From IMG/VR virus record IMGVR_UViG_3300025151_000004, positions 1 to 55,851 of that record: a DNA stretch of 55,851 nucleotides. The stretch is one strand, 5' to 3'. The notes below the pieces were generated by a model. That model was not told the origin of the DNA and did not search any database. It saw only the letters and a list, made by a program, of their open reading frames with translations. The first letter of the stretch is position 1, and each line of letters opens with the position of its first letter. Both the position numbers and the translations under genes were made by a program. Source of the stretch: a virus (lineage: Duplodnaviria; Caudoviricetes). This document shows positions 21,683-55,851 of the stretch, one piece after another.

Positions 21683-24600
21683 TATCTAGGATTCCGTTCG
21701 AGTCTTTCTTGTTCTTGTCTTCTGATTGCAAGAGGTAGATCGTCAACTGGTACATCAATACCCTCTGCTCTTCTAAAGTCTTGCATAGCGGATCTCGTGA
21801 CAGAACCCATATCTATTCTAATAGGTTCTGAGGGGTTCTCAATGTTGTGCTGTCTGACTTCATCCATAATTGCCCGGATTTCCCCCTGAATTATTTCGAC
21901 TTCCTCAGAATCACCATTTGCATTAGCGATGTACAACTCAACAAAAATATTCTTTAGTGCATTCCTGTATGAACGTGACCGGGCATTATAGTTTTGCTCT
22001 GCCTTAATTTGTTGCCATGTTACATTACGGGCCTCAACGATTGATGTCGGTGTGAAGCCTGCGGCCTGTATGGCTATATCAAATAAATCAACCCCTCCAA
22101 AAGCCTCAACTGGTAATTCCCTACCACCCATGGTTACTCTACGGCTTCCCTGAGCGGCTAGTAGTATATTACGAAATACAGGTGGGAACATTTCTACAAC
22201 GGCTAAATCGTAGTCACCTGCGTTCACCCGCCTTTTTACATTAGTTACCTGTCCGATAATACCACCGGCAGGTCCGAAGAAATCTGGAAGAGATGCTTCT
22301 CTACCACCTGTTACAATTTGTACGAGACCTCGTGGTCCTTCAATACCAGTTCTTTTGCCCAACTCCACTCCAACCAAGGAGGGTAGACCACGATAAGCAA
22401 GGGCCAAAGCAACTTCTTGTGGCAACCCAAAATCATAAAGCATATCAGTGAGCATTGTCTCGGGATCTTCATCATCTCCCCAGATGTTATTAATCATGGA
22501 TACAATGTCACCAACTATGGCTACGGCAGGTACACCTATGATTCCGCCAGTGGTAACAAAAGCTAGGCCTGAGAGAAGGGCCATGCGTTTATAAATTTTA
22601 CGGGTTTCAGCATCCAGCTTAATTGGGTTACCATTCTCATCAAAACCACCGGCCCCTGTAAATCCATCCTTGAGAGCCTTGAAGAAATAACGCATGACCT
22701 GTGTCTGATATGGCAGAAACTGGGTTACAACCCCTGAGATTGGACCACGATTGTATCTGGGCCTGTCTGTCTTATCGAATTTAAACTGTGTCTTCTCCAC
22801 AGAGAACTGTATAAAGTTATCAAGATTAAATTCGCCGTACCTATTCTTACCCTCTGCGTCAAACATAAGTTTAGCTTTTGCGGGATCTTTCTTATATACT
22901 TCATAAGCAGCAATCGCCGTTGCGAAACGGTTGAACTGCTCCACCCAAGCGAAGGCAAAGCCTGACCCTCTTATACCAATCTCAACGCCCCGACCAATTT
23001 TTGAGTTTAACAACAAGGGTTGCTGTGATAGCTGACCCGAAACATCTGATAACTGAACAGGGGCCAAGATAGGCTGCGCTCGCTGTAGAGCTTCAAACAA
23101 TTGTTGATCCATGCCCGCAGGTTTTTTTCTCAAATCAAAAGGTTTGTTGGAAAAATCTAAGAACTGAAGACCCCTCGACATTCCCGCTTTTTTTGGATCA
23201 CTTAGTGGGAATTCTTTAGTCAACTTTAATGCTAGTTTAAAACCTTTTATAAGTGCGGCTGTACCCTCTGCTGGATTTTTCGCAATGCTCATAATGAAAG
23301 GCATCGTTGTATGCAAAAAAGAAGTAAGGTTGACCCCAGCAGATGACAGGTTACCACCAAGCCACCACGTAAACGCTATTCGTTTGGCAGTATCAGAATG
23401 CCTGTGTTGTTGTGAAACGTATCCATCTTCACCCCAAGTCTTTTGAGCTAGATCTTTGTAAGCCTGTGGTATCGTATTATCATTTTTTATGGCATCTAGC
23501 TCGTTATTTAGCCTTCTGTTTAAAGGCATTCTGGCAATCATGTTTGCCTGTGACGATACATGTTGATTAAAAGTTTGGCTCAGATTGGTAGATAGATTAT
23601 CTCTTGTTAAATCCCCCGGTATAGATTTTGAGTTTGGGATTAGGCGTTTACCAGCTTCAGTCGCAATTCTTCTTCCAAATGCTTTTCTAAACGCACTAAA
23701 ATTTTCAGACGCCTCAGTAGACGCAGCAGCATGATCCAATATATCCATAAGCGTATTAGAGGTTGCTGGACTTAGGTCTGCAACGAAATCATTAAAAGTT
23801 AATTCAAAAACACCCTTATTTCCCGTCGGAGTATAGTCAGGATTTTCTTCAAAGAATTTATTTCGTTTTTCTTCAGCATTTCGCTGCGCATCCTTAATAA
23901 ATTTAGGATCATCAACAACCTTAAAACCTACCCGCTCCACTCCGAAACGATCTGTAAATTTATACTTAAAACCAAACCTACCTTTTCTCATGGCAGGCAT
24001 ATAAAGGAGTTTGCGCTGCTTTTGAAGATCGTTGAAATGATCTCTAAATTCTCGGAGATCTTCAATTAAGGCGTTGTCGACATCCTCTATTCCTTCTAAA
24101 CTTTGGACCAGAGAATCAAACTTGTCCCCATCTCTTATATCTTCAAGGGTTATATAATCAGGGGGAAAAGTATCGCCTAACTGACTATTAATTTCATCAA
24201 TACCAGTAAGTAAGTAAGCCTCTACCTTTTGATCATAGATAAAATCGAAGACTTCTCTAAGTTTAAAAGCAGTATCAGCCAACTGTGTTCCAGAATCAAT
24301 TCGGAAAGTACCTAAGCCGGGAATTGGGTGCACAATGTCCTGATTAAAAAAGTCTTCAATTGTCACATCCTTTTCATCACTAAGAATCTTTTCAATTGTC
24401 TGTTCGTTTGTGATCCCAAGCTCTCGCAGAGCCGCCGCATCCAATGGAGTGTCTGGTTGTGTAGACGCCTCCATTATAGTCCGGGCAGCATGTAACAATC
24501 CATTAACCTGAGTTTTTTCTTGTGGAGTATGCCTCTCCAAAAAACCTGTGCTGAGCCTGTCCTCAACACCCACAATTACGTTGTTAAATCTCTCTTCTAT

Positions 24601-27324: not shown

Positions 27325-29154
27325 TTAATCTTGTGCGGCATCGGCTGGAATTGAAAGACCTGAGCCGCCTAATCCCAGCATACTCCGAAATATGTCTCGA
27401 CGGCTTATAAGAAGCTGTAGCTCATTGTCTAGGTCTTCTTGAGTTCGGCCCGTTACTGAGCCCCCCAATTCCATGAAACTCTCAAGCTCGTCAATAGTAG
27501 CGTCTATATCATCATCAATAATGCTGAGTTGATCTTCTAATTGCTCCCGACTAAGGGCTGCCATAGCAGACATGAAGTCCTGCTCATTAGCTGTTTCAAG
27601 AATATCAAGCTGTCTGCCTTCCAGATCCAAGGCCAGTTGTTTAAGGGCTTCTTCTCTACGTAGTGCGTCCTCTTCCTTCTTGGCCTGAAGGGCTGTGAGT
27701 CCGCCCGCACTGGCTGATCCTAACACGGATGCACCGGGTTGTGCCGCCGCCTGCATCATGGCAAGACCGGCTGTTATGAGGTCTTCATAATCAAAGCCTC
27801 TATCTTCTACTTCAGCCGCCACGCCGTCGTCAGCACCGTCATCAGCACCGTCATCTGTATCTGGTTCTGGTTCGGTCACGTCTTCATCTGCGGCCATAAT
27901 TTCAGCCAGAAGAGGCGTCATTGCTGCATCAGGATCAGATCTGGGTCCGGGCACATCCGATGCTGCCATTGATTCTCTTATTTCTTCTTTCCTCTCTAGT
28001 GTTTCACCCAGAGGAAAATACGATAACAGTTCATAAACTTGGGTAGTAATATTTTCATCGTCACCAAAGCCAGATTCAAGCTGTGAAGTAAGAAAATCTA
28101 GCAGCACCTGCGAACTACTTTGTCCGTCTGCTGCTGCGGCATTTATAGCGAGAAGTTGTTCTACTCCCTCTTTTAGACTAACACCATCGGGAGAACCATC
28201 CTGATACTTTAAGTCATCAGAAACCTCACCGCCATCTTTTAAAAACATACCGGCCAGCATTCCTCCGGGTCCAAACGCACCACCTGATCCAAGCATGCCA
28301 AGGCCTGTCAAGCCTAGACCACCTATCTGTCCCGCTACGGATGGGGGCTGACCAAAGGTGGATGATAGGGTTGCTCCGGGGACCGTGGCACCACCTAGAA
28401 GACTCTGTAAGCCAGATGCCTGTGCCAGCGGATACTGGCGTTGTGTGAGGAAGTCCTGATATGCAATGTCAAGGGCACCCTGACGTTCAGCACGTTCTCT
28501 CTCACCAGCAAGTTCAGCCTCTTTGAGTCCTGTGGTTAGAGTCTGCTGTAGCCCGCTACCCAAGGCTGCTAACTGTGGAGCCGCTTTGGCTGCTGCACTC
28601 CTATCGGCGACAAGCTGGGCTAGGGCACTCTCATAGGCCCGCTGTGATCCCGTGGCCTGAATGTCTGCCAGATTCTTCTGAATGTTTCTCTCTGCTTCTG
28701 CTTGCTGAAGGCCCTGACGTGAACCACCAAAAGCACCTGCCCTTGTTGCCTGAGAAGCCAGTTCTTTACGCTGGATGTCCCCCTGTCTCCGGGCTTCTTT
28801 CAGGGCAACGTCAGTGACAGCCTGTTGGAACGGGGACATGAATGGGGTAATATCCGCCCCGGCTAACTGGGTTGCACCAAGTCTGGCCTGTTCCAAAGCT
28901 TCGGTATAAGAGGGTGCCGCAATAGATGCGAGGCCGCTAAACCCTTCACGGGCTTCACGCTGTGATGGGCCAGCAAGGGCCTGACGTGGACCACCATAAG
29001 GCTGATATTCTTCAAAAGCTGCCTCACCTGCACGTAAAAGATTAGCCTGCTGAAGACGGTTATACCAATCAGGATAATTCGTCGTGGCTGTTGTTCTTTG
29101 CTGCTCTTGAGAGGCAGACCCTCCTGTGCCAAAAAGGCTATCTAAAAATCCCAT
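27325..29154 (-). CDS. internal virion / DNA pilot-like protein
   Basis: MGFLDSLFG start, Gln/Ala-rich helices, AGAFGGSR motif, acidic C-half. Confidence 0.65.
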   Translation of the reverse strand: MGFLDSLFGTGGSASQEQQRTTATTNYPDWYNRLQQANLLRAGEAAFEEYQPYGGPRQALAGPSQREAREGFSGLASIAAPSYTEALEQARLGATQLAGADITPFMSPFQQAVTDVALKEARRQGDIQRKELASQATRAGAFGGSRQGLQQAEAERNIQKNLADIQATGSQRAYESALAQLVADRSAAAKAAPQLAALGSGLQQTLTTGLKEAELAGERERAERQGALDIAYQDFLTQRQYPLAQASGLQSLLGGATVPGATLSSTFGQPPSVAGQIGGLGLTGLGMLGSGGAFGPGGMLAGMFLKDGGEVSDDLKYQDGSPDGVSLKEGVEQLLAINAAAADGQSSSQVLLDFLTSQLESGFGDDENITTQVYELLSYFPLGETLERKEEIRESMAASDVPGPRSDPDAAMTPLLAEIMAADEDVTEPEPDTDDGADDGADDGVAAEVEDRGFDYEDLITAGLAMMQAAAQPGASVLGSASAGGLTALQAKKEEDALRREEALKQLALDLEGRQLDILETANEQDFMSAMAALSREQLEDQLSIIDDDIDATIDELESFMELGGSVTGRTQEDLDNELQLLISRRDIFRSMLGLGGSGLSIPADAAQD

Positions 29155-31238
29155 TATTTCTTCCTTTTCAAACTCTCAACGAGTTCATAGATAATATCTT
29201 GTCCAGCTTTGTTCGCATCGCCTTCACGGGCACCTGTCATGAGTCCAAGATTTGTTATAGCATCACGGGGGATAACGTATTCCTTGTTTGAAACACGGGC
29301 TGGAACAGAGTTAAAGGGGTTCTGGAGATTGTCCATCTTGCCTGCGATTCCACCACCACCGGCATAGACACGGGTATTGATAGCGTCATCACGGGGACCA
29401 CCGGGACCACGGATCATACCATCATAGTTCCGGTTTCCCGTTAATTTCTTGGATAGGCTTGCAAGGCCACCCTCATTACCCTTTACTGCATGGGCAGGAA
29501 CAACGTGATCACCTTCGACCAAAGGGAGTGCGTCTGTGCGTCCACGGACTGAGCCACCGTCTTTCATGCCTGTCATTTCGGAGGGACGGCGGTTTTCATA
29601 AAGTTCATTAAGTTTATCCTCTGTCATGCTATTAACAATGTCATGGGATTGCCGTCCGGTGAGACCCATAGATCTAAGAATATTGTAAGCAAACGCTCGT
29701 GTAACCCCTGTACCTTCAGGGTAATTCGGAGACGTTGCATACAATTCCAAATAACGCTGATCTGCCCTGTCTTCGAGGCGTTTCTCATCTTCAGTAACAT
29801 CAATTTGTTCCTGATACTTTTGCAATAGTTGTTCAGTAATATGCTGTGGATACCAGTCCTCAAGAGGTACACCCATACCAAGGCGTTTCTCATCTTCAGA
29901 TAAGTTGGCACGATCTATGATCTTTGACATTTTTTGTTCTTTATAAGACTCTCCACCTTCTGTGGGAAATGCCTCTTCTTCCCCGATCATTCGAGTCCTC
30001 TGTGCAATCGAATCAATATCTAGGACTGAACCCCCGTCTTTCAGACCCAACGCCTCAAGATCAGCTTTTAAGTTTTCTGCCACACCGGGCGGACTAGGCT
30101 GAATGTTCGGGAAAGCCTCAGCCATAGCCCTCTCTGATAATTCTTGAGACTGCTCATTAAATAAAGCAAGCTCAGCAGGACTCATTCCATCTACAATTTT
30201 TTGGGCGTCTCGTGGGAAAAGACCCTGCGACCTAAAATATTCGTAGGGGGCTATTCGTAAGTTATCATTATTGTCACGATATTCCTGAACAATTACAGTA
30301 TCTAATTGAGTGTTCTCTTCCACAGAAGGAATACGACCAAGCTGTCCTAGGGAGGATGGTCTTTCTACTTCAATTTCAGGAGTAAGAGCTTCTGGAATAA
30401 TATTTATAGGCTCATTATTTCTTATATCCCCGATACGTGTAGGCATAGGGCGAAGGTTAACGCTACGGGGCTCACTTAGCCTATCCCCGATACGTGTAGG
30501 CATAGGGCGAAGGTTAACGCTACGGGGCTCACTTAGCCTATCCCCGATACGTGTAGGCATAGGAGGGTTAACGCCACGGGGCATCAGACCACCGGGTTGA
30601 AACTGTGCACCCTCACGCATGGCCATTGCTGGGGAAATAGCCCCTGCTTCACGAGCCATCTCCAGTCTTTCAGCCTGTTGTCCTGTGGGCTTATCCTCGA
30701 TAAGCATAAGATCTTTGAGCATGTTACCAAATTTTGCCACGTCAGTCTGAACCTCTGATTGACCGGGGCGATTAAAGCTTTCACCTGCACGGCCACCCTC
30801 GACAAATTTTTCAGGGGTTCTGGACATAAGACCAAGTTCTCTGATAATGCCGGATAGCCCACCCGGTGTGCCTGATAAATCTCCAAATTCTGGGAAGGAG
30901 GAACGATAACTAAACTGGCGCTGCTCGGGGGCAATGCCAAATCTGGAAAGGGCTTCTTGTGCTTCGATCCCACCAAGTGCAATCCTTTGAAGATCAGAGA
31001 AGTAATTCTGTAAATCAGCAGCTTCACGGAGGGCTGAAATTTCAGGGGCTGCGGCGGGGATTCCGGGAATCTTCTCTTCTTCCTCAATCCTATTTAATCG
31101 AGCCGCACCTTCGGGACCGCCTGATCTACCTGCGGTTACATCCCTTTGACCTCGCCGACCACGGGCTTTACCAACCGCACCATATGCGCCCATTCCTATG
31201 TTACCTACTCTACCTGAATCTGGTCCACCGCCGCTCAT
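29154..31238 (-). CDS. internal virion protein with repeats
   Basis: 694 aa; GPGGPRDD..ARVSNKEYVIP module; several KDGGSV motifs. Confidence 0.65.
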   Translation of the reverse strand: MSGGGPDSGRVGNIGMGAYGAVGKARGRRGQRDVTAGRSGGPEGAARLNRIEEEEKIPGIPAAAPEISALREAADLQNYFSDLQRIALGGIEAQEALSRFGIAPEQRQFSYRSSFPEFGDLSGTPGGLSGIIRELGLMSRTPEKFVEGGRAGESFNRPGQSEVQTDVAKFGNMLKDLMLIEDKPTGQQAERLEMAREAGAISPAMAMREGAQFQPGGLMPRGVNPPMPTRIGDRLSEPRSVNLRPMPTRIGDRLSEPRSVNLRPMPTRIGDIRNNEPINIIPEALTPEIEVERPSSLGQLGRIPSVEENTQLDTVIVQEYRDNNDNLRIAPYEYFRSQGLFPRDAQKIVDGMSPAELALFNEQSQELSERAMAEAFPNIQPSPPGVAENLKADLEALGLKDGGSVLDIDSIAQRTRMIGEEEAFPTEGGESYKEQKMSKIIDRANLSEDEKRLGMGVPLEDWYPQHITEQLLQKYQEQIDVTEDEKRLEDRADQRYLELYATSPNYPEGTGVTRAFAYNILRSMGLTGRQSHDIVNSMTEDKLNELYENRRPSEMTGMKDGGSVRGRTDALPLVEGDHVVPAHAVKGNEGGLASLSKKLTGNRNYDGMIRGPGGPRDDAINTRVYAGGGGIAGKMDNLQNPFNSVPARVSNKEYVIPRDAITNLGLMTGAREGDANKAGQDIIYELVESLKRKK
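30425..30563. repeat. 57-bp in-frame tandem repeat (2.4 copies)
   Basis: units start 30425, 30482, 30539; encodes PMPTRIGDRLSEPRSVNLR. Confidence 0.9.
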
Positions 31239-33394: not shown

Positions 33395-33607
33395 TCATCG
33401 TGGAAAATAAAAAAAGACTTGAGAAATAAAGCCACCAAGAGTTGCTGAAAAGCCGGATATCATCATTAATGTTTTCCATCCTCCCTGCGCCTCTGAAAGA
33501 GTATTTAAAATTTTACGAGTATCCTTACGCACCTCACTTAGTTCTTTTTCAAGTAAAGCAATCCTAGCTTCCATGTTACCAAGTTCCCTATCTGTAAAAT
33601 TAACCAT
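33395..33607 (-). CDS. small coiled-coil protein with C-terminal TM segment
   Basis: 70 aa, heptads then hydrophobic tail. Confidence 0.65.
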   Translation of the reverse strand: MVNFTDRELGNMEARIALLEKELSEVRKDTRKILNTLSEAQGGWKTLMMISGFSATLGGFISQVFFYFPR

Positions 33608-34739
33608 TGATTGTTAACCATGATGCAAGAGTATAGCGAGTTCCAGAAATAATCTTCTCAACACTGTGCATAATAGATTCTCCTCTAAATACAATTAATT
33701 CCCCGGCATGTCCTCTTATTCCCATATTAATCTCTGGAAACATTAATTCGCCGCCTTTATAATCATCATTAAGGTATACTATAGCAGCAAAGTGTCTATT
33801 AGGAAATTCCTTGTATTTCCCCAAATCATCATGGACTAACATCTCATCCCCCTCATTCCATTTTACAATATTTGTATCCATAATTGAGAGATTTAATCCA
33901 GTCTCCTGTCGGGCAAATTGAACTATCCTTTCTTCTATAACCCCTTTATTTGAATCGAGGGCTGACCAGCAAACCCTGTTCTGCCACTGAGAAGTATCAT
34001 CGGGATTCTCGGCTACCCAATTTCTAATTAAAAAATCACATTCATCTTTATCTAAGAAAGATTCTTTAGAGTAGATGCCATTACTTTCAAGTATTTTGAA
34101 ACTATCTGAATAGTCTATAACAGGGGAAGACCGAACAAATCTTCGTGCTTTCTTAAAGTAGTCTTTGGTCCAGTCATCAGTTTTACCCCGTTTATCAGAA
34201 ATAACTTCTCTTTCATCCTTAACACTTTCTGGTTCAGGCATTTTATAAATCTTAGTATTCTCTATAGCCCCCGTATTAATGGGAATGATTCGGGCAAGCT
34301 GGGTTCCCTTGGGAATAGTGGTCTTCCCTTTGTTAACAACACGGATTGTCAGAAACCATGGATAGGATAACCAATCAGTCTCGATGATTGCGGACATTGT
34401 TTGAATATCGGTATTATCGGAGTTAGGTACTGGCATAACCATGAGGTTAATATTCTTATCAGTACGCCAAATATATCCGGGGTCTAGTGTAAAAGTACCC
34501 ATACCAAAATGGCTTTTAGCACCAGCGCCTTCAATGACTGTTAGATTATCTTGATAGACACCACCGTCCCATTCCACGACAACTGTCTCATTTAGAACAA
34601 GATCCCAGCCGACAGTATTAGCACATGTTAGTGGGGTACACTTATACGCATGTGGAATAAACCAATCTCTTGTTTTAGTTGCGGGTATTATATCTACTGA
34701 TTTAACTGAATCAGAAACTACCGGATAAACTTGTATCAT
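33600..34739 (-). CDS. DUF6065-like domain fused to 2OG-Fe(II) oxygenase (prolyl 4-hydroxylase-like)
   Basis: HAYKCTPLTCAN..GW N-domain; HDD, YLNDDYKGGEL.F, H.V..I.SG.RY C-domain. Confidence 0.8.
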   Translation of the reverse strand: MIQVYPVVSDSVKSVDIIPATKTRDWFIPHAYKCTPLTCANTVGWDLVLNETVVVEWDGGVYQDNLTVIEGAGAKSHFGMGTFTLDPGYIWRTDKNINLMVMPVPNSDNTDIQTMSAIIETDWLSYPWFLTIRVVNKGKTTIPKGTQLARIIPINTGAIENTKIYKMPEPESVKDEREVISDKRGKTDDWTKDYFKKARRFVRSSPVIDYSDSFKILESNGIYSKESFLDKDECDFLIRNWVAENPDDTSQWQNRVCWSALDSNKGVIEERIVQFARQETGLNLSIMDTNIVKWNEGDEMLVHDDLGKYKEFPNRHFAAIVYLNDDYKGGELMFPEINMGIRGHAGELIVFRGESIMHSVEKIISGTRYTLASWLTING

Positions 34740-35485
34740 ATTAATTTTACGACGTACCTATTTCCATAGTCTGGGGGATCAGAACGAATTGGGATATCTA
34801 AAATCATCTCATAATCTGATGATGGCAGTGTTGCAAAACTGTTTGTTTCTTCAACAAGACTTTTTGAAGCTATGATAACTTCTTTTCCAGACTCTTTCAA
34901 AAACTTCCCCAAATTCACATTGCCATCGGCAAAGTCATCATAGAAAACACGGGACATAATATAGGTATCATAGGACATATCAATAGATTCTTCTGTGGCC
35001 ATCTCTTGATAAAATAAGACATCATAATCAAATAATATAAAGTTACAGGCAGATATCATGGCTGATTCTTCCATGGGTTCATACACACAATTCACGCTTC
35101 CCAGAAGATGGGTAATAATTGTGGATGTTCCAGATCCACATCCTATATCACACACCCTCTTGTCTTTCCAGAAATCTGTTTGATCACCCTTGAGCCATGC
35201 ATACTTAATGATTTCCTCATTTGTCCATTCTGAATTGGGATCGGTGAAGGGAGGAGTAGGTTCCATATCTTTGTCCCAACCAAGATATGATAAACCTTGG
35301 ATAATACTGGGAAGGAGAGGTCGTCCCTGAACACATCGGATTCTTTCAAGGTCGTTATACAGGACATTAAGAACAGATTCTCGATTAACAGTTTCAGTTT
35401 CAAAGTAATCAGAGACCAGAGTTTTCCAATCAGGTAGAATAGTATTCTCTAAGACTGCTTCTAGTTTTTCAGCATATGTGGGCAT
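34736..35485 (-). CDS. class I SAM-dependent methyltransferase
   Basis: VCDIGCGSG motif I. Confidence 0.75.
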   Translation of the reverse strand: MPTYAEKLEAVLENTILPDWKTLVSDYFETETVNRESVLNVLYNDLERIRCVQGRPLLPSIIQGLSYLGWDKDMEPTPPFTDPNSEWTNEEIIKYAWLKGDQTDFWKDKRVCDIGCGSGTSTIITHLLGSVNCVYEPMEESAMISACNFILFDYDVLFYQEMATEESIDMSYDTYIMSRVFYDDFADGNVNLGKFLKESGKEVIIASKSLVEETNSFATLPSSDYEMILDIPIRSDPPDYGNRYVVKLI

Positions 35486-36132
35486 TACTTAAACACTCCT
35501 GTATAGTTTAGAGATTTTAGTATACTCTTATCTAGCTTGTCTTCTATAATACGGGACATAGCGGGTGTCATATTATACGACATATAGGGGCTCAGAGCCA
35601 TTTCTTTTCTTTCGGGCGTAAATTCAAAAGAGCCATAAACTTTAGATGGGATGTTATAAGATTCTAAAAACATAATATTATTTAATGTCTCTTCTGGGTT
35701 ACTGATAAGGTCGGTATACTTTACATATTTGATTGATGAATTAAAAGGGTTAGATAACCAAAAAGTAAAGAACCTGTTATAAAGATCGCAGATATTTTCT
35801 AAACTATATGCTTTATATTCTTCGATAATATCAGGAGTATCATGTAATGTTTTAGATGTGGCGCACCTTAGTTTTGTGTGCCCCTTCTCATAACCAACCT
35901 TGTAGTAGACACCAAGTTCCCATGATTGAGAGATAATACTATCAATCCACTTATAAGGTGATTTATGGATAATAACTCTGTCTATACCCCTGATATGTTT
36001 TGGAATATCATGGGGGACAAACTCATGTTTATATCTTGTGTACTTATTATTCTTATCAAGTATAGTCTGTAGATAATTAGTCCCAGATCTATAGAGACCG
36101 CATACTAAAACGGAAGTTTTATTCCCTGCCAT
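35485..36132 (-). CDS. sulfotransferase-like P-loop protein
   Basis: GLYRSGTNYL (5'-PSB-like), KSPYKWIDS (3'-PB-like), VKYTDL. Confidence 0.7.
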   Translation of the reverse strand: MAGNKTSVLVCGLYRSGTNYLQTILDKNNKYTRYKHEFVPHDIPKHIRGIDRVIIHKSPYKWIDSIISQSWELGVYYKVGYEKGHTKLRCATSKTLHDTPDIIEEYKAYSLENICDLYNRFFTFWLSNPFNSSIKYVKYTDLISNPEETLNNIMFLESYNIPSKVYGSFEFTPERKEMALSPYMSYNMTPAMSRIIEDKLDKSILKSLNYTGVFK

Positions 36133-36800
36133 TTAACATCTCGAATATCATCTGTCCTGCACCATTGAGAAATACCAACAAAACCATCAACTATGTATCC
36201 CCCACCAGACTGTATTAAGAGGCCGTAAATAATTTCTTCAGGATCTTGTTCAGAGTCCCACATTGCTTGGGTAGTCTCCCAACCATCTATCGTGGCAAAA
36301 TCATATTGTTCCCCATAAAGAAGGGGCATTGTGGCTTTACCAATATGCTCGTAATCATAAGGGCTCTCCCCCGGAAAGTTCTCCTCAGAAGATTCATCAT
36401 AACCCCTATCTTCCAGCAACCACCAGTTATAATTATAAACACCCCATCGTTCAACACCATTATTATCTCTGATCCATAAGTCATGATCATCGCTAAAACG
36501 AAGTGGTTTATAGGCTCCTTGTCTGTAGATACTCATCATACGCCTGCCCTTGGAAACTGGGACAGGTTTATTTTCTACAACATCCGCAATTTTTCCAGAC
36601 AGAGTATAGACAGGATCACCTACCTGTATATCCTTAATCTCCTTCCACTTATAATCAGCCATCAATACACAAGTGTCCCCCGCAAAACAAGTCATGGGTG
36701 GAGGCGGAGGTGGCGGGGGTGGAGGCGGAGGGGGCGGAGGAGGTGGCGGTGGTGGGGGTGGTGGTGTAAGAAGCCCTCCTACTAGGATAATGTCAGGCAT
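36105..36800 (-). CDS. polyproline (23 Pro) peptide fused to Hint (Hedgehog/intein) domain
   Basis: Pro13-35, then CFAGDT..IKDIQVGD block A, SDDH block B, YGL...YIVDG terminal strands; AAGGA RBS. Confidence 0.8.
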   Translation of the reverse strand: MPDIILVGGLLTPPPPPPPPPPPPPPPPPPPPPPPMTCFAGDTCVLMADYKWKEIKDIQVGDPVYTLSGKIADVVENKPVPVSKGRRMMSIYRQGAYKPLRFSDDHDLWIRDNNGVERWGVYNYNWWLLEDRGYDESSEENFPGESPYDYEHIGKATMPLLYGEQYDFATIDGWETTQAMWDSEQDPEEIIYGLLIQSGGGYIVDGFVGISQWCRTDDIRDVKWQGIKLPF

Positions 36801-39509: not shown

Positions 39510-41198
39510 TTATGCGCCACTAAAATTACTACGAGTACATTTAAAGGTGAATGAAAAGTTCCTGTCTGTTTCAGCAACTCCAGTTAATTTGAATAGAAGA
39601 GCATTACCAACGGCAACTGTGTTGCCTCCTGTGGCAGTGGCTATAGCTTTTGTAGTATTTACTGTAAGACCGTTCATCCCCGTCACCGTAGTTTCAGTTC
39701 CGGCAGCACTAGTTGCAATAATAACAGAAGCAGTAATCTCACCGGCTGAGAGTTTACTTGATAAGGTATTGACTGTGAAAGCGAATGGGGAGTCAACCAG
39801 AAGGAAGACTGGAGTAAAGCCAGAGTCAAGCTCATCTCCATACTGACCAGAGATTCCAAAAACTACATCAGTATCAACCGAGGTGGCAACAATGTTTGTC
39901 GCTGAGAGTGCAGGTGTGTGAACCTTTGTGGTTGCATGGATATTTGTAGCTGAGATAGTTGTGGCAGAGAGAGCCACAGTATGAATCTTTGTAGTTGCCG
40001 TAATGGTTGCAGCAATAATGTTCGTGGCCGATAGCGCCGGTGTATGTATATTTGATGTGGCTGTAACTGTGGCCGCTGTGAAGTTCGTAACAGAAAGCGT
40101 GGGTGTATGGATTGACGTGGCCGTCACAGTACCCGCTGTAATGTTCGTAGCTGACAAAGTTGGCGTATGGATGTTTGACGTTGCCGTTATTGTAGCAGCG
40201 ATGAAGTTCGTCACGGAGAGTGACGGAGTATGGATTGAGGTCGCTGTCACAGTTCCTGCGGTAATGTTGGTCGCAGATAGAGCAGCCGTATGAATCTTTG
40301 TCGTGGCAGTGATTGTGGCTGCGGTGATATTTGTAGCGGACAACGCAGGTGTATGGATGTTCGAGGTGGCAGTCACAGTCGCTGCTGTAAAGTTCGTCAC
40401 AGACAAGGACGGGGTATGAATCGAAGTGGCCGTCACAGACCCTGCTGCGATATTTGTTGCGGATAGTGTGGTAACAGAAAGAGCCGGGGTGTGTATCTTA
40501 GATGTTGCAGTAATTGTAGCTGCAATAAAGTCTGTCACGGACAGAGAAGGGGTATGAATTGACGTAGCCGTTACAGAACCTGCTGTAATATTTGTAGCTG
40601 ATAAAGCTGCGGTATGAATCTTGGTAGTCGCTGTGATCGTTGCCGCAGTAATATTTGTCGCTGAAAGAGACGGCGTATGGATATTTGATGTAGCCGTCAC
40701 CGTAGCTGCTGTGAAGTTTGTCACAGATAGGGACGGGGTATGAATTGAGGTAGCAGTTACAGTACCGGCTGTGATGTTTGTAGCCGACAGCGCCGGGGTA
40801 TGGATGTTTGATGTTGCGGTAACCGTGGCACCAGTGATGTTGGTGGCTGATACAGTCCCGGCAACTCCGATGTTGCCTGATGCATCAAGATAGACAGATT
40901 TACCGGCAGGATACCCGCAGAAGACAACCTTGGTCCCTGCGCCCAGATTTACCGCAGATCCACTATTAGATGATGCTAGGATTGTGTCACGGGATAGCGT
41001 GGTTCCTGATGAAGTATAAGTACCAAGACCTACTTCCCAGTCACCTGTTCCATCATCCGTAATCACATAATAAGTTGTATTGGTATTGCCAATCTGGGCA
41101 AACGTATCAAAACCATCATAGGAACCACTCAGCGTAATCGTGCCAGTGCCCGTTGTTGTTGTCTGTTGTTTTACTCTGTCTTTGACAACGAGAGCCAT
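39510..41198 (-). CDS. Thr/Ala/Ser-rich repetitive fibre protein
   Basis: DRVKQQTTTTGTG..WEVGLG virion-anchor domain followed by ~15 repeats of 20-21 aa. Confidence 0.75.
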   Translation of the reverse strand: MALVVKDRVKQQTTTTGTGTITLSGSYDGFDTFAQIGNTNTTYYVITDDGTGDWEVGLGTYTSSGTTLSRDTILASSNSGSAVNLGAGTKVVFCGYPAGKSVYLDASGNIGVAGTVSATNITGATVTATSNIHTPALSATNITAGTVTATSIHTPSLSVTNFTAATVTATSNIHTPSLSATNITAATITATTKIHTAALSATNITAGSVTATSIHTPSLSVTDFIAATITATSKIHTPALSVTTLSATNIAAGSVTATSIHTPSLSVTNFTAATVTATSNIHTPALSATNITAATITATTKIHTAALSATNITAGTVTATSIHTPSLSVTNFIAATITATSNIHTPTLSATNITAGTVTATSIHTPTLSVTNFTAATVTATSNIHTPALSATNIIAATITATTKIHTVALSATTISATNIHATTKVHTPALSATNIVATSVDTDVVFGISGQYGDELDSGFTPVFLLVDSPFAFTVNTLSSKLSAGEITASVIIATSAAGTETTVTGMNGLTVNTTKAIATATGGNTVAVGNALLFKLTGVAETDRNFSFTFKCTRSNFSGA

Positions 41199-47337: not shown

Positions 47338-47754
47338 CTAGTTAGAAAGATTAAACATAGGGTCCAGATTTGAAGGATCGTCTACGACCATGGTGATTTC
47401 ATCATCATAGCACATAATCAACCTTACACCCTTATATAAAAACTTAGCACCAGTGTGCTTACCGTAACAAACATAATCTCCCGGTTTACACCATGGTCCC
47501 TTTGGAAACTTGTTTTCGTCTTCATATGCAAGATCACCAACAGCAAGTACTCGACCTACTGTTGTTAGATACTTCATATCATCTTTAGCCTTATCAGGCA
47601 AAATAATACCGCCCTTGGTCTTGGACCGAATAGGTACAGGACGAATTAAAAGTCTATATCCGGGGATTTTGGGGAGGGGATCTGGATCGGGGACTTCAAC
47701 ATCAGAGATCCACTCGTCATTTAACTTGGCCCCACTCATTTCTGGCTCAAACAT
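47338..47754 (-). CDS. groES: GroES-like co-chaperonin
   Basis: KTKGGIILPD, G.VLAVG, GD.V.Y.K..G. Confidence 0.8.
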   Translation of the reverse strand: MFEPEMSGAKLNDEWISDVEVPDPDPLPKIPGYRLLIRPVPIRSKTKGGIILPDKAKDDMKYLTTVGRVLAVGDLAYEDENKFPKGPWCKPGDYVCYGKHTGAKFLYKGVRLIMCYDDEITMVVDDPSNLDPMFNLSN

Positions 47755-48170: not shown

Positions 48171-48320
48171 TTACTTCCTTTTTATCTTTCGTGGTTTCTC
48201 GACTTGATAAAGTCGTCTCACCATTTTCTTAGCATTATCAATGGATGACGCCTGAGCGTGTTTCTTCCATCTTCCGCCTACCTTCTTTTGTACCACACTT
48301 CCAACATTACGCCAAGGCAT
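48171..48320 (-). CDS. 49-aa basic protein (MPWRNVGSVVQKK...), not in ORF track
   Basis: TAATG coupling to portal stop, fills gap. Confidence 0.6.
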   Translation of the reverse strand: MPWRNVGSVVQKKVGGRWKKHAQASSIDNAKKMVRRLYQVEKPRKIKRK

Positions 48321-51300
48321 TAGTCGATTCCATCAAGATCAACTAGAGAAAGACCCATTTCTTGCCTTAGTAAATTTGAATCGTTTTCACGACGGGATAG
48401 GTATTGTTCCTTTCCAGACTCTGGGTTTACAAAATTTTCTAATTCGTCAATTACATTTTCCCAGTCAGATCTGGATGCATGTTCTATAAAAGTAGGAGCG
48501 CCGGATGTTCCATATTGTCGTAAGACTGATTGAATCACGGTTCGTTGGTTAGGAGTTAAATCAATCCAACGTGTCGTCCCTTCGGGGTCCATTCCTTTGA
48601 TCAATTTCGAATCCCAGAGGTCTTGTAAATTATCGAATTCAAAAACAAAAAGTTTTCTGTCAATTTCATCGAACTCGTCCTGAGTAATTTCTATATTATT
48701 ATCCTTTAAGAAATCTTTAGCCTCTTGTCCCGTTTTCCCTAAAAACGGTTCCAGTTTCTTAATTAAATTTTCATTTAAGTTCAAGTTTCTGAGGCTTCCA
48801 ACAGTTTGTTTTCCGAGGTCAAGACCTGTGGAAAACGTAATACCAGAATCTCCCATGATAGAACCGTCTGCATTCTGAGGAATGTGACCTACAAGAATAC
48901 GAGGAGCGTTTTCTGCTTCCCCTATATAGGCTCGTGAAAACTCTATCTCATCTTGTGATATAATGTCTGAGAACAGAGGTTTTTCTTCAGGGAGTGGTGG
49001 AACTTCTGGCTCACTCTGGGGTGTGGGTAATAGAACTTTTACCGTAGATTCTACTTCTGGTTCCTGCATTGATGCTTTCAGACTCTCTACAAAATCAATA
49101 CCCATTCCTGCTTCTGCTGCCTTTGCATCAATATCTTCCTGTGACGGAGTGTACCGAGTCATCTGGTATGGGTTGTCCTCATAGCTTTTTTTGACCAAGT
49201 CAATAACATCATCAAAGTTTACTGCGCCGCCTTCTTTAAAGCCCTCCGCTGCACGCTTTTCTGAGATATCACGCATCTTGCTCAGACCATCAAGGATAAA
49301 TCTCTGAATCTGGATGTCTTTCTTATTGGTGGCTTCCTGTGAACGAATGGTATTCTCACCAATATCCTTGGCCGCTTCAATGTCCTGACCACGTTTCCGA
49401 AGATCAAGTTCCTGTTGTTTGAGGGCAAGATCGGCCAACTCTTTTGCGTTGTCCTGATTCATCCCCTTCTCTTTCAATTCAAGACTGCGGCTTTCAAGTG
49501 CAAGCTGCTGCTGTTCGAGAGTCTGGTACTGACCAAGCTGCTGGTTCGCATTCAGGATCTGCTGGGATGCTTCAGCCATAACCTCTGGCATGACATCCGG
49601 GCTGGAGCCCTGTAGGAAGCCGCCCATGGTCTCCTGATACTGCATCATCATGTGTTCCCGGATAGCTGCCTGTAGGAGCGGAACCATGCTCTGTAGTTGC
49701 TGGTTCTGTCCAAGGGAGGGGTCTTCGATGAATGAGGTGAAGACCGTGATATATGCAGCATGGTCCTGACCGGGGAATGCCGCAATGGGGAGACCCTTTG
49801 ATACAGAGATAATGTCAGAGACAGGATCCTGTGGTACGGGTTCTTGAGATGGGGCAAGGAACCGATTGGGATCAGCAATACCGGCAGCACTCAGGAGTGA
49901 CCGGTGGACTTCAGTCATATTATATGTACCCGGTGGGGTCTGTGCTGAAATCTGTAGGAGCATCTGGGCCTGTGCCAGACGATGTGCCTGTGATGGGATA
50001 TTGGGGTCAGAGACCGGGATAATATCAATTCTGCCATCAAAGTCAGTCCGCTTCACCGGGAGATCTTGGCCGGGGATTGGGATGATCAGGCGTTCTTCCG
50101 GGAGAATCTCATAATTCAACCGGGCAAGAATTCGTAGCTCATCCCGCTGGCTCTTATGAAGTCTCTTGTGGATGGCTGAGAAAAGCTTGGCTGATGCTTC
50201 GATCAGGGCCAAGGTGGTGCCGACTGGACCATAGTTTGTGGAATCAGCCACGACAGCATCAGTGGAATCGGCAAACTTCTGACCAGCACTGGTGACAACA
50301 CCGAGTAGCTGTAAGAGGGTCTGTGATGGCTCTTTGTATGGTAGTGGGACGATGGCCTTCTGGAGATCCATCCCTGTTGCTTCGACTTCCTTGAATTCAC
50401 CGGGGGAGATTGGATCATCACCGCCGACAATCCTGATACCACGGGCCTTGAAACCACCGGGCAGATTGGAGAACTGTCCGGCGTCAAGGAGGGACCGCAT
50501 GGCCAACGTGGCACTCATGGTGAGGTTCCCGAGGAAATGGATCAGGCCGAGACCGTAGAAACCAAAACCGGGGACGTACTTGTAGTGGGTGAAGAACATC
50601 TTCTTCTCACGGGTGAAGTCTCCTTCATTCCAGTTACGCCTGATGCTCAGGACTTTCCCGCTGTCCTTCTCAATGGTGACAATGTATGGCGATGGGATTT
50701 CATCCCCGTCAAGCTCAAGATACAGGTGCTGCTCAAGGAGCGTGTACTGTTTATCATATTCAGCGTTAAACTCAATACCCATGATTGAGTTAATCGTCTG
50801 GCTCATTGATGATGGTTCAAACTCTGATGGCTCAGACAGATCAATATCACGGTACATCCCGGACATGATCTGCTTCTGAAGCTCATGTGGGGTCATATAG
50901 ATGACGTGGGTGTACCGGTCTGCCCGCCGTAGATCAGTGGCGTTATACGAGACGTAGAATTGATCAACCGGTACAAACTCGGAGACGGGGCGATCAGATG
51001 CAGGATCATAGTAGATCTTCTTGAACGCTGAGCCTACAAGTGGAAGGTGGAAGAGCATTCTCTCGAACTCGTCAAAGTACTCCGGCATGACCTCAGTCAA
51101 TTGGTAGTTCATAAATGTTTGGACTCGGTATGACTGCTCTTCACTCTCTTGAGAGGGAATACCCACAATCTGGGCTTTTACTGGACCCTGTGGTGGGAAC
51201 AATTCCTCTGAAGCTTTTGATTGAAACTTGACAGCACTCTCAATCAGGAGGGGATGAACTGCTGTACAGGCACCTTCGAATGGCTCAGAAGCCGTAGTCA

Positions 51301-51547
51301 ATTTTAGACCAAGAAGCTCGAAGCCTTTTTCAAACATACTCTCCCATTCAGCCCGTGAATCTTTGTCGGCTTCATATGAATCAACGACCATAGATCCAAT
51401 ACGCTCAACCTCTTCTTCTGAGAGAAAATCTTCAGCCAGATTATCGTAGAATCCAATCTCAGGGATTGGCTCAAAAATCTGAGCTTCATCCGCTCCTTCA
51501 GGGAGGATAAAATCAAGAATGTTAAATTCTGTTTCCGGGAGTGCCAT
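48320..51547 (-). CDS. portal protein with C-terminal pesticin-like muramidase domain
   Basis: follows TerL; HPLL.E..V.FQ, GSAFKK.Y, GFYGLGL portal motifs; C-terminal GHIP..SGITFSTGLDLG..QYG..RR..D.NLL. Confidence 0.8.
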   Translation of the reverse strand: MALPETEFNILDFILPEGADEAQIFEPIPEIGFYDNLAEDFLSEEEVERIGSMVVDSYEADKDSRAEWESMFEKGFELLGLKLTTASEPFEGACTAVHPLLIESAVKFQSKASEELFPPQGPVKAQIVGIPSQESEEQSYRVQTFMNYQLTEVMPEYFDEFERMLFHLPLVGSAFKKIYYDPASDRPVSEFVPVDQFYVSYNATDLRRADRYTHVIYMTPHELQKQIMSGMYRDIDLSEPSEFEPSSMSQTINSIMGIEFNAEYDKQYTLLEQHLYLELDGDEIPSPYIVTIEKDSGKVLSIRRNWNEGDFTREKKMFFTHYKYVPGFGFYGLGLIHFLGNLTMSATLAMRSLLDAGQFSNLPGGFKARGIRIVGGDDPISPGEFKEVEATGMDLQKAIVPLPYKEPSQTLLQLLGVVTSAGQKFADSTDAVVADSTNYGPVGTTLALIEASAKLFSAIHKRLHKSQRDELRILARLNYEILPEERLIIPIPGQDLPVKRTDFDGRIDIIPVSDPNIPSQAHRLAQAQMLLQISAQTPPGTYNMTEVHRSLLSAAGIADPNRFLAPSQEPVPQDPVSDIISVSKGLPIAAFPGQDHAAYITVFTSFIEDPSLGQNQQLQSMVPLLQAAIREHMMMQYQETMGGFLQGSSPDVMPEVMAEASQQILNANQQLGQYQTLEQQQLALESRSLELKEKGMNQDNAKELADLALKQQELDLRKRGQDIEAAKDIGENTIRSQEATNKKDIQIQRFILDGLSKMRDISEKRAAEGFKEGGAVNFDDVIDLVKKSYEDNPYQMTRYTPSQEDIDAKAAEAGMGIDFVESLKASMQEPEVESTVKVLLPTPQSEPEVPPLPEEKPLFSDIISQDEIEFSRAYIGEAENAPRILVGHIPQNADGSIMGDSGITFSTGLDLGKQTVGSLRNLNLNENLIKKLEPFLGKTGQEAKDFLKDNNIEITQDEFDEIDRKLFVFEFDNLQDLWDSKLIKGMDPEGTTRWIDLTPNQRTVIQSVLRQYGTSGAPTFIEHASRSDWENVIDELENFVNPESGKEQYLSRRENDSNLLRQEMGLSLVDLDGID

Positions 51548-51570: not shown

Positions 51571-53097
51571 TTAAGCTGCTACTGAATTCCAGTAAGTCTT
51601 TTTACTTTTAGTATAAAACTTGTTATCAGTGTCTTGATTATAGGACGAATCATACGGATGTTCAAGTCTCCAAGATTCACGCATGTAGTGTATGGCCATA
51701 ACCATGGCATCTACTTGGTCATCATGGGCTGCATTCGGGAATGATGTGGATTCTAAAATGAGACTCTCACTCCATGGTTTCTCTTTTGGTAACCAGATTC
51801 TCCCGCTTTCCACAAGGGGTGACACGGCATTCACCCGGCTCACCTTGTCCCTGTCCGGGGTGTATTCCCTGATTGGCAGACCTGCCCTCCTCATGTCTTG
51901 GATGAGGCTCTGTCCTGATGCTTTCTTTTCAATGATGACAACATCAGGTGAATGTTCTTCATACATTTCTTGGGCCATCATCCTGAGTTCTGGGTATTCA
52001 AATTTACCCACGATATTACTCAGGAGAATGAGGTTACCGACGATATGCTCCTCCCCTGCGGAATCAACCTCCATGGTGGCAAAGATTCCCCATGTCTGGA
52101 TCACAGAATTATCTGCTGTACTCCGGGTGGAGAACGCAGTATCAAGGGTCTGTATGACAAAATCACAATCGGGTGGTTCATCATGATCCCATTCGATAAA
52201 CCAGTCTTTCTTCAGGATGCCGCCCTCGGCAGGTACCGGGTTCTGCATATACAGGGATTCCCAATATCTGGCCCCGTTATACTTCTTGATTTCAATCTCG
52301 TCTTTCTTTAAGACTTCGGTAGGTTTCCACTCTGGGAAATAGGATGAACCGACAGGGAGATTCAAGATGGAGGAGGATTCCTCATCAATCCATGCGGGGA
52401 TCTTGAGAACATTCCAGTCATCCTCCTCGGAATTTCTGAGGAGCCACCCGCAGATATCATCCTCGTGATACCGGGTGTTGATGATGATAATCCCCCCATT
52501 AGGCATAATTCTGGTCCTCAGACCAGCCGGATACCACTCCTTGATATACCTCCGGCCTGCCTCTGAGAAAGCATCTTCTTCAGACATGACATCATCAAGG
52601 ATGGCCACATGGGCACCACGACCGGCAATCTGGGATCTCACACCGGCTGCTACATAGACACCGCCCTGCTTTGTCTCCCATTTACCCGCAGCCCGGACAT
52701 CCTTTCTGAGGGAGACATTTGGGAAGACAACCGAGAATAATTCATTATTGACAATATCCCTGACTGACCGACCAAAGTCCGTGGCAAGCTGATCCGAGTG
52801 GGAGACACAAAGAATCTGGTTGGACGGGTGTAGACCCATGTGCCATGCCGGAAATATCTTGGAGCAGAGGAGTGACTTGGATGAACGAGGTGGGAGGAAG
52901 ACCATCTGTCTCTTGATCTCCCCCTCTGATACTTTCTGGAGGGTGTCACAGATAACCTCGATATGCCTCCCGACTACAAAGTCAGGGACAAGGATTGGGG
53001 CTATAGCCTTGGTAAACGTATAGAAATCACTCCGTGATTGAGACACCATCTTCTCAAGGAGTGCCTCCCTTAGTTTTTCTTTTTCATTTGTGGACAT
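51571..53097 (-). CDS. terL: terminase large subunit
   Basis: PPRSSKS Walker A, ILDD Walker B, TRYHEDD, LDTA, HDDQVDA nuclease motif. Confidence 0.93.
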   Translation of the reverse strand: MSTNEKEKLREALLEKMVSQSRSDFYTFTKAIAPILVPDFVVGRHIEVICDTLQKVSEGEIKRQMVFLPPRSSKSLLCSKIFPAWHMGLHPSNQILCVSHSDQLATDFGRSVRDIVNNELFSVVFPNVSLRKDVRAAGKWETKQGGVYVAAGVRSQIAGRGAHVAILDDVMSEEDAFSEAGRRYIKEWYPAGLRTRIMPNGGIIIINTRYHEDDICGWLLRNSEEDDWNVLKIPAWIDEESSSILNLPVGSSYFPEWKPTEVLKKDEIEIKKYNGARYWESLYMQNPVPAEGGILKKDWFIEWDHDEPPDCDFVIQTLDTAFSTRSTADNSVIQTWGIFATMEVDSAGEEHIVGNLILLSNIVGKFEYPELRMMAQEMYEEHSPDVVIIEKKASGQSLIQDMRRAGLPIREYTPDRDKVSRVNAVSPLVESGRIWLPKEKPWSESLILESTSFPNAAHDDQVDAMVMAIHYMRESWRLEHPYDSSYNQDTDNKFYTKSKKTYWNSVAA

Positions 53098-55389: not shown

Positions 55390-55448
55390 TAACCACGGGG
55401 CTCCGGAGAGATCTGGAGCCCCACCTATCACCGAGGAGAACCAGAATA

Positions 55449-55565: not shown

Positions 55566-55626
55566 TAGATAAACCACGGGGCTCCGGAGAGATCTGGAGC
55601 CCCACCCACCACCGAGGAGAACGAAG

Positions 55627-55808: not shown

Positions 55809-55851
55809 TGAGAATCATTCGCATTGAGAATGCAACTAAGAATCATTCGCA
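55809..55851. promoter_or_regulatory. two Fur-like 7-1-7 boxes spanning the right terminal repeat
   Basis: TGAGAAT-C-ATTCGCA (55809-55823) and TAAGAAT-C-ATTCGCA (55837-55851 = 27-41). Confidence 0.5.

Follow-up and report, generated by a model that had tools for sequence, protein, structure and literature searches.

In several short-tailed phages a glycan-cleaving domain is stored in the head beside the portal barrel and opens the cell wall when the DNA is delivered, e.g. on SU10 gp20, T7 gp16 and the phiKMV-type proteins gp42/gp36, and the position of this domain among the head proteins is modular (Hardies 2016). A phiKMV-like phage has its lysozyme domain on an ejection protein other than the one that carries it in T7, and the portal barrel is the base on which the ejection proteins are stacked (bioRxiv 10.64898/2026.05.18.726046). 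Here we compare these systems with an open reading frame (ORF) on the minus strand of the virus record IMGVR_UViG_3300025151_000004 (IMG/VR; Caudoviricetes), the whole analysed stretch of which, 55,851 nt, is referred to as the window. This ORF joins a portal protein to a Pesticin-type muramidase domain, and we class the system as a virion-linked wall hydrolase or portal-fused passenger. The carriers in SU10, T7 and phiKMV-type phages are separate proteins that leave the head, whereas the carrier in the window is the portal; as the portal stays in the capsid, a release step would be needed, unlike for ejection-protein carriers. A hydrolase on the end of the portal barrel could be seen as one further step in the same modular theme, with twelve copies where the ejection proteins are stored.

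Fusions of portal or MuF domains with C-terminal effectors, which are presumed to be injected, have been described as 'polyvalent proteins' (Iyer et al. 2017, PMC5512222), and the window ORF follows this pattern with its portal, its C-terminal enzymatic passenger and its late-gene context. Polyvalent proteins comprise 2–15 domains and carry RNases, 2H phosphoesterases or InPase aimed at the cytoplasm, whereas the window protein has one passenger, which targets the wall. The portion of that account used here describes no cassette exchange, and its remark on portals cites Fastrez 1996 and Hardies 2016; the latter, in the portion used here, assigns lysozyme domains to internal proteins of the virion and to tail proteins rather than to the portal.

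Pesticin (PF16754; PDB 4aqn, 4arq) has its fold and its essential residues in common with the window domain, but the window protein lacks a receptor-binding/translocation domain, its N-terminal 785 amino acids (aa) being portal instead. SU10- and P22-type portals resemble the window protein in matching Pfam SU10_portal and in having a long, helical C-terminal region rich in Gln/Glu, to which the window adds 290 aa past the barrel. Lysis-cassette endolysins belong to the same enzyme families, whereas the enzyme in the window is encoded as part of the portal gene, within the packaging and head module, and no holin adjoins it. Literature searches, judged in part from titles and abstract openings, returned no description of a portal-wall hydrolase architecture, and the main texts of the papers on HTVC023P-type phages and CRP-901 mention no lysozyme, endolysin or peptidoglycan. 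The sequences are already in databases under automatic names; their reading as a portal-fused exchangeable hydrolase is new.

A portal protein that continues into a muramidase domain

The initial annotation had noticed that the portal ORF runs about 300 aa past a Gln-rich barrel into a hydrolase domain, and this is borne out by one open frame of 1075 codons. Its parts, in window coordinates, are:

48320–51547, minus strand: one ORF, 1075 codons and a stop, encoding portal and muramidase as a fusion
49193–51547, minus strand: portal body, aa 1–785 (SU10_portal match aa 185–574 at 49826–50995; DNA about 97% identical to the related locus L007 up to 49191)
49223–49630, minus strand: Gln/Glu/Lys-rich predicted helical region, aa ~640–775 (secondary structure of a low-confidence full-length model, pLDDT 34)
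49178–49243, minus strand: conserved junction GFKEGGAVNFDDVIDLVKKSYE, aa 769–790, left edge of the putative cassette and left homology arm for its exchange
48953–49192, minus strand: hypervariable Pro/Glu/Ser-rich linker, aa 786–865 (10 Pro, 11 Glu and 8 Ser in 80 residues)
48323–48952, minus strand: Pesticin-type (T4-lysozyme-like) muramidase domain, aa 866–1075 (Pfam match 48458–48892, aa 886–1030)
48911–48913, 48836–48838 and 48818–48820, minus strand: predicted catalytic residues E879, T904 and D910 (further conserved residues: P890, Q1011 and R1052–R1053)

The portal half matches SU10_portal (PF23899) in Pfam with E 3.6e-13 (49.3 bits against a cut-off of 30; aa 185–574) and the portal family phrog_1216 in PHROG with E 4.6e-42 (aa 144–577). 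The gene order likewise fits a portal, with the large terminase gene TerL at 51571–53097 followed by the portal gene at 48320–51547 and then by GroES-like, scaffold-like and capsid genes. Of the full-length portal model (pLDDT 34) the three-dimensional coordinates were set aside and only the secondary structure was considered. In this poor model the Gln/Glu/Lys-rich stretch at aa ~640–775, whose part at about aa 653–767 corresponds to the 'Gln-rich barrel' noticed earlier, is predicted to be helical, and by analogy with SU10 (portal domains in PMC9509320) and P22 it is presumed to be the portal crown or barrel that points into the head. The strings quoted initially are all present, i.e. GFKEGGAV at aa 769–776, E879, GHIP at 887–890, SGITFSTGLDLG at 901–912, QYG, and RR at 1052–1053; the Pro/Glu linker is aa 786–865, and the span 48320–49260 given for the fusion covers aa ~763–1075 plus the stop codon.

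The C-terminal domain matches Pesticin (PF16754) in Pfam with E 6.7e-27 (94.8 bits against a cut-off of 25.8), and a six-frame search of the genome gave a sole Pesticin match, at 48458–48892 (99.1 bits), within an open frame of 1076 with zero stops. A structure of aa 850–1075 predicted by AlphaFold with 39 stand-alone homologues reached a pLDDT of 89.1 and a pTM of 0.81. The ten best PDB matches to this model in Foldseek were all pesticin (E 1.2e-7 to 1e-6, TM 0.64–0.69), followed by P22, T4 and other phage lysozymes, and a PDB search with the domain sequence found pesticin only (8 distinct sequences, best E 3.1e-7). The pesticin/T4-lysozyme-like fold that had been proposed is thus supported by profile, model and structural neighbours alike.

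Of the pesticin mutants, E178A, T201A and D207A have lost their activity, while ~10% of it remains in P187A and Q301A (PMC3390615). The equivalents of these residues in the window are E879, T904, D910, P890 and Q1011, the last four of which align directly. Among unique Pesticin-type portal tails, the T, D, P and Q equivalents and the Arg pair (R1052–R1053) are each kept in 42/42. The catalytic Glu is present in all 42 as well, in 30 of them nine residues before the conserved Pro, which is the pesticin spacing, and in 12, including the window, eleven residues before it, reflecting a two-residue insertion between Glu and Pro in the window's Pesticin subtype. In the tails of relatives that carry an SLT lytic transglycosylase instead (see below), the ES...GLMQ motif is kept in 10/10. 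Judged from its sequence and predicted structure, the portal tail is very probably an active muramidase.

Within the Pesticin family at large, the best-scoring representatives are two proteins with three and four tandem Pesticin domains (P0011, 1204 aa, and P0012, 860 aa). The portal body had no phmmer match at E <= 10 among the best 150 of 1150 Pesticin-family representatives, and a portal Pfam match is absent in ten long proteins with a C-terminal Pesticin domain (10 of the 31 representatives of at least 500 aa).

The fusion in independent assemblies and close relatives

Contigs from four marine metagenome runs, one of which is possibly the source of the window DNA while the other three are separate samples and studies, tile positions 48300–49700 with zero inserted or deleted letters, and no stop codon or frameshift separates the two domains. 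No single contig spans this stretch, because the assembly graph branches in the linker. The alternative linker paths differ from the window by multiples of 3 in 5/5 cases (−51, −102, −93, −48 and +39 nt; chance 0.004), although the joints have short sides (21–62 letters) and are possibly from related strains. Co-occurring variants thus vary in linker length yet keep the frame.

A search with the portal body (aa 150–650) returned at least 8000 proteins, all with E <= 1e-50, and we determined the composition of the best 120:

At least 82% identity to the window portal body: 52 proteins among the best 120, all of the long form (one fragment), 37 with a Pesticin tail, 6 with an SLT tail and 9 without a Pfam tail
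62–67% identity: 68 proteins among the best 120, of which 22 are long (1055–1334 aa) with a GH24 Phage_lysozyme tail, 5 long without a Pfam tail, 2 intermediate and 39 short (820–835 aa) with no tail

All 52 of the proteins with a portal body at least 82% identical are therefore of the long form, and the fusion is found in every close relative examined. An artificial joining of two genes, through loss of a stop codon, a frameshift or chimeric assembly, is refuted by a frame that is kept across independent runs, databases and diverged sequences, and by linker insertions and deletions that are all multiples of 3. We regard the reality of the portal-muramidase fusion as practically certain.

Linker and enzyme as an exchangeable cassette

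With the tail as query, nine more proteins were found that have the two Pfam domains together, eight of them of 1045–1138 aa and one a fragment of 847 aa. Compared with the window, their portal bodies are 84–99% identical and their enzymes 36–73% identical, and the two are joined by linkers of 50–141 aa that contain repeats, every length variant being in frame. From viral contigs we obtained 26 portal loci with an alignment query (the C-terminal domain alone as query gave none), 23 of them with a complete 3' end; in 23/23 of the latter the portal ORF has 920–1180 aa, three being cut N-terminally by the contig edge. Their tails are of three kinds:

Pesticin-type tail: 7 loci (Pfam E 4.7e-24 to 3.6e-38 on 3 tested)
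SLT lytic transglycosylase tail: 6 loci (Pfam E 1.1e-22 to 2.7e-25 on 3 tested)
Type 3 tail, with no family match: 10 loci

The tail kind is almost independent of the portal phylogeny. A Pesticin-type and a type 3 locus (P0007 and L007) have portal cores that are 99.9% identical and differ in their enzymes, both containing the 755-aa partial portal L009; likewise, an SLT and a type 3 locus (L016 and L019) have portal cores that are 99.5% identical. Parsimony required 8 family switches on 26 tips, compared with a mean of 10.6 and a minimum of 7 in shuffled sets. Comparison of the window DNA with that of L007 shows 96.9% identity over nt 1–2357 of the gene, i.e. up to codon 785, and no detectable similarity from nt 2357 to nt 3227; identity returns, at 96.1%, with nt 3228, where the stop codon ends, and extends over another 3.3 kb. 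As identity breaks off at codon 785 and resumes at the stop codon, the exchanged unit in the window is positions 48321–49190, bounded by the conserved motif GGxVNFDDVIxL on the left and the stop codon on the right:

48321–49190, minus strand: exchangeable cassette of linker and enzyme, as we read it; the sole stretch without DNA similarity to L007, with flanks ~97% and 96% identical

We are highly confident that the last ~290 codons, i.e. linker and enzyme, are a recombining, exchangeable cassette. The window enzyme is shown by these comparisons to be one allele of the cassette slot, which in relatives holds a Pesticin-type, an SLT, a GH24 or a third, possibly lysozyme-like module.

Repeats such as SMFEAVQSLPEVKP are found in the linkers, as is a second copy of the junction segment, and the tether grows by repeat expansion. 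In the tails of L014 and L016 the junction segment (DDVIALINSYEMPRYTPSQEEIDAK...) is duplicated within the linker, and other linkers have 2–3 copies of SMFEA(V/M)QSLPEV(K/E)P.

The length and the disordered look of the linker, together with a Met placed exactly at the enzyme-domain boundary in many tails and in-frame ATGs at codons 815 and 827 of the window, could suggest that the enzyme occurs as a free protein, with translation starting inside the linker or with proteolytic cleavage ahead of assembly, and that the virion portal is of ordinary length. We consider this improbable, as a Shine-Dalgarno-like motif precedes 0/16 boundary Mets compared with 17/34 real late-gene starts (in a crude scan; host signals may differ), and the window has no start codon at the boundary, with poor motifs or none at M815 and M827. 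The separate initiation considered in the initial annotation thus finds no support. The linker sequence is variable and shows no conserved site for cleavage.

The type 3 module has no Pfam match in 4/4 tails, no PHROG match, no match in a PDB sequence search (best E 1.4, unrelated) and no tblastn match in 50,697 phage records, and aligns to Pesticin in hhalign with a probability of 1.7%. Three homologues only, all unannotated, were found in the databases. The nearest clusters in the language-model Atlas are Phage_lysozyme and Pesticin at 0.86–0.89, below the line of 0.9 from which a placement counts as more than a lead. The invariant motifs of the module are GGREG...H.D...FTL(G/A)YGV and G(L/M)LKRR, which we take to resemble GH24 signatures, and its lysozyme-like nature is a lead only.

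A domain that is enzymatically dead and acts as a structural spacer or plug at the barrel tip might be imagined from its being tethered where an enzyme has no substrate. Such a role is very improbable given that the residues essential in pesticin and the ES...GLMQ motif of the SLT tails are kept without exception, as described above, and that the domain is replaced by unrelated folds sharing only their substrate, the glycan strands of peptidoglycan, which argues for selection on catalysis.

Long and short portals among more distant relatives

All nine tails without a Pfam match in the group of at least 82% identity are type 3 by phmmer (9/9), and in the group of 62–67% identity 4/5 long proteins without a Pfam match are matched by GH24 tails. 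GH24 lysozyme is the tail enzyme of a sister lineage. Two further scans of viral contigs gave more than 600 matches each. In the first of them the portals were short in 80/80 loci (807–848 aa where complete), and among 79 more distant loci 57 were short, 20 long (7 GH24, 5 SLT and 8 unassigned) and 2 ran off the contig. Read by eye, a GLLQIN-type motif in the unassigned tails of L130, L132 and L134 hints at a transglycosylase, a motif of IGIAHN type in P0241 looks lysozyme-like, and L138, L140, L169 and L172 have short coiled-coil extensions only; the tail of L126 is matched weakly by SLT queries (E 1.3e-5). Every tail assigned by Pfam or phmmer is a cleaver of glycan strands, and no other kind of cargo was recognised among the tails examined.

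Both halves occur in one place in 0/50,697 deposited phage genomes, and a metagenome scan gave no long-portal genome of more than 25 kb in the clade of the window. The unfused portals of the deposited phages HTVC023P, CRP-901 and DSL-LC04 end at 777–821 aa. HTVC023P gp32 (245 aa), which abuts the portal, was considered as a split-off tail and rejected, as it has no similarity (best E 1.3) and no Pfam match. Stand-alone Pesticin homologues in pelagiphages and vibriophages are 27–34% identical over ~460–550 nt (tblastn) and are annotated as lysozyme or pesticin-domain protein. The fusions themselves are named 'GH24 family phage-related lysozyme', 'chaperonin GroES' or 'hypothetical protein' in the databases, 'chaperonin GroES' on the portal-fusion clusters apparently being a mis-transferred label; with such automatic names the portal and the sole recognisable lysis or entry enzyme are easily missed.

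Other wall hydrolases and lysis genes

In the remaining 72 ORFs of the window Pfam scans detected no wall-hydrolase family (in one scan 25/26 families were inspected, down to E 0.004), and six-frame searches of the genome for SLT, GH24, Amidase_2, Peptidase_M15_4 and Peptidase_M23 gave no match. The ejection-protein homologue, the 694-aa virion protein and the giant 1883-aa protein have no hydrolase domain in Pfam either. The candidates for a lysis or ejection function are:

27325–29154, minus strand: ejection-protein homologue, 609 aa, no wall-hydrolase domain in the Pfam scan
21658–27309, minus strand: giant 1883-aa virion/ejection-type protein, whose gene closes the late operon and is followed by no lysozyme gene; no wall-hydrolase domain
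21127–21345 and 21355–21567, plus strand: two small proteins (72 aa and 70 aa) with a single transmembrane segment (TM) each, the sole holin-like candidates, located where the plus-strand block ends, no hydrolase gene adjoining

The fused muramidase is no separate endolysin gene, as it lies in the portal ORF, in the head module and ~27 kb from the holin-like ORFs. For comparison, we searched records of relatives for stand-alone GH24 frames:

Short-portal records (portals of 820–848 aa) with a stand-alone GH24 frame: 6/12 (G004, G005, G006, G007, G014 and G016; 143–178 aa)
Long-portal records with a stand-alone GH24 frame: 0/5 (G000, 100% complete; G001, 95%; G008, 61%; G009, 45%; G002, 37%)

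In G005 and G004 a GH24 lysozyme of 161 aa lies at the distal end of the late operon (in L115 at 10179–11053 and in L116 at 9234–9719), in the order ejection-protein homologue, giant protein, 339- or 265-aa protein and lysozyme, facing a convergent ribonucleotide-reductase gene. A 1-TM ORF lies beside the lysozyme in both, with 132 aa downstream on the same strand in G005 and with 70 aa on the opposite strand in G004. Lysozyme and 1-TM ORF are likely a lysis cassette, which has no counterpart in the window, where the late operon ends at the giant protein. When G001 and G002 were searched for the same five families as the window, the only match was the SLT tail of G002. In CRP-901 (L002) an 858-aa 'LysM domain-containing protein', named for a peptidoglycan-binding motif, is encoded three genes downstream of the unfused portal and might be a wall-directed virion protein.

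Possible roles of the portal-linked enzyme

The best explanation of these data, to which we give a probability of roughly 55%, is a genuine fusion with an exchangeable cassette whose enzyme is packaged for entry and probably also serves as endolysin. By analogy with solved portals of this kind the C-terminal crown or barrel would point into the head, so that twelve tethered enzyme copies would lie in each virion beside the ejection proteins and could supply wall cutting as the short tail delivers the DNA. Unlike in SU10, T7 and phiKMV-type phages, the ejection proteins here have no hydrolase domain, and the portal tail may take that role. Release would most likely occur by cleavage or threading of the flexible linker. 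As no other hydrolase is recognised, and relatives with short portals often have a separate small lysozyme, the pool of unassembled portal probably acts as endolysin at lysis as well. Taken by parts, packaging of the enzyme on the portal is probable, virion presence being suggested by its covalent linkage to an obligatory virion protein; action at entry would have an even chance, and we put the odds of action at lysis equally in the balance, the two not being exclusive. The two roles raised in the initial annotation, a head-loaded entry enzyme and the endolysin missing from the lysis cassette, are both viable.

A tentative extension, possible but on the unlikely side, would make the portal itself the delivery vehicle, its tails being released by cleavage or threading ahead of the DNA, and the exchange among four families reflecting an arms race with the wall chemistry of the host or with periplasmic lysozyme inhibitors. 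If true, the portal tail would be a determinant of host range or counter-defence in very abundant marine phages.

The lysis-gene comparison fits equally well an enzyme that is an endolysin only, acting late from unassembled portal subunits through holin lesions, with inert copies in the virion and a fusion that is a frozen accident of genome streamlining. The muramidase is the sole recognisable wall hydrolase in a complete genome, which has two holin-like small TM genes without an enzyme partner; a stand-alone GH24 is found in 6/12 short-portal but 0/5 long-portal records, at the late-operon end with a 1-TM ORF in the two genomes examined; and the stand-alone homologues of pelagiphages and vibriophages are annotated as lysozyme or pesticin-domain protein. 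The frequent non-orthologous replacement of lysis-cassette endolysins in related (lambdoid) phages also counts in favour of an endolysin. We nevertheless hold this alternative to be unlikely, if a serious contender, as no unfused derivative occurs in 52 close relatives and 23 loci despite an extreme turnover of the linker. It also leaves unexplained the recruitment of four or more enzyme families, each to this one inward-facing portal end, and the lack in the ejection proteins of the hydrolase domain usual in short-tailed phages, the statistics behind the lysis-gene contrast being weak (p = 0.075).

Several points weigh against a packaged enzyme with a function at entry. Packaging of the tail, its cleavage and its activity are all predicted, and the inward orientation of the C-terminus is taken by analogy, with a full-length model of pLDDT 34. 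A channel of ~3–5 nm cannot let through all twelve copies while they are attached to the portal's inner end, and the 80-aa linker, by estimate at most ~28 nm when extended, seems too short to reach the periplasm without cleavage; no protease gene, self-cleaving motif or conserved cleavage site was recognised. Since a stop codon alone would abolish a needed enzyme, the fusion could have persisted through a ratchet and not because tethering is selected for. The contrast between short- and long-portal records in stand-alone GH24 is weak (one-sided Fisher p = 0.075), and several of these records are incomplete. The short-portal genomes G003 and G010 (at least 95% complete) also have no stand-alone GH24, G003 being negative for Pesticin and SLT too and G010 having been searched for GH24 only, and the unfused phages HTVC023P, CRP-901 and DSL-LC04 are negative for SLT, GH24, Amidase_2, M15_4 and M23. 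As near-complete short-portal genomes are negative as well, an unrecognised hydrolase does not mean an absent one. Finally, the type 3 module is at best a putative hydrolase.

Portals are seen as conserved DNA-passage machines, and an active, frequently exchanged hydrolase that would face inwards raises the question whether and how twelve tethered enzymes exit the head. They also provide a natural experiment on the division of the wall-breaching function between head proteins in short-tailed phages. As the family is large and marine (at least 8000 database relatives at E <= 1e-50) and has HTVC023P-type pelagiphages and CRP-901-type roseophages as relatives, the trait may matter for infection and lysis in abundant phage-host systems of the ocean.

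Genome context and further observations

The window is a complete phage genome with direct terminal repeats (completeness 100 in the classification of the virus record). Its plus strand carries genes for replication and nucleotide metabolism at ~0.1–21.6 kb (DNA polymerase A, a DnaB-like helicase, ribonucleotide reductase, ThyX and others), and its minus strand carries packaging and virion genes at 21.7–55 kb, i.e. small and large terminase, portal, GroES-like, scaffold-like and capsid proteins, an SU10-type adaptor, fibre-like proteins, the ejection-protein homologue and the giant 1883-aa protein. Two further features belong to this frame:

1–41 and 55811–55851: exact 41-nt terminal overlap, by sequence identity
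51571–53097, minus strand: large terminase, immediately upstream of the portal gene (phrog_38, E 1.7e-111)

The nearest deposited phages are the Pelagibacter phages HTVC023P and HTVC027P, the Roseobacter phages CRP-901 and CRP-902, phage DSL-LC04 and Caulobacter phages, with portal identities of 33–43% over aa ~12–740 (tblastn, 50,697 phage records). The GroES-like co-chaperonin gene lies at 47338–47754, between the portal and the scaffold-like gene, and has the same placement in HTVC023P and DSL-LC04.

Among the 35 ORFs of the plus-strand block (96–21567) one has a match to GDP-mannose 4,6-dehydratase/epimerase (E 1.5e-106), and the block also encodes a C-5 cytosine methylase, ThyX, dCMP deaminase and MazG; thus, sugar- and nucleotide-modifying auxiliary genes are present. 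Unusual genes are found within the structural operon at 33600–36800. One encodes a 379-aa protein with DUF6065 and a 2OG-Fe(II) oxygenase domain, another a product of 215 aa whose N-terminus is sulfotransferase-like, and a third a product of 231 aa that matches a Hint domain weakly (E 8.8e-6, which is below the cut-off).

Repeats occur elsewhere in the genome as well. The gene of the 694-aa virion protein (29154–31238, minus strand) contains an exact 57-nt tandem duplication of two identical copies, in frame (19 codons), at 30425–30538. The gene at 39510–41198 (minus strand) has four diverged direct repeats of ~300 nt with 61–75% identity at 39961–40770, which suggests that its 562-aa product is an internally repetitive, fibre-like protein. 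Near the end of the genome a 51-nt repeat, 96% identical between its copies at 55391–55441 and 55572–55622, holds the GC-rich palindrome GGGGCTCCGGAGAGATCTGGAGCCCC and may be a terminator or a packaging or regulatory site.

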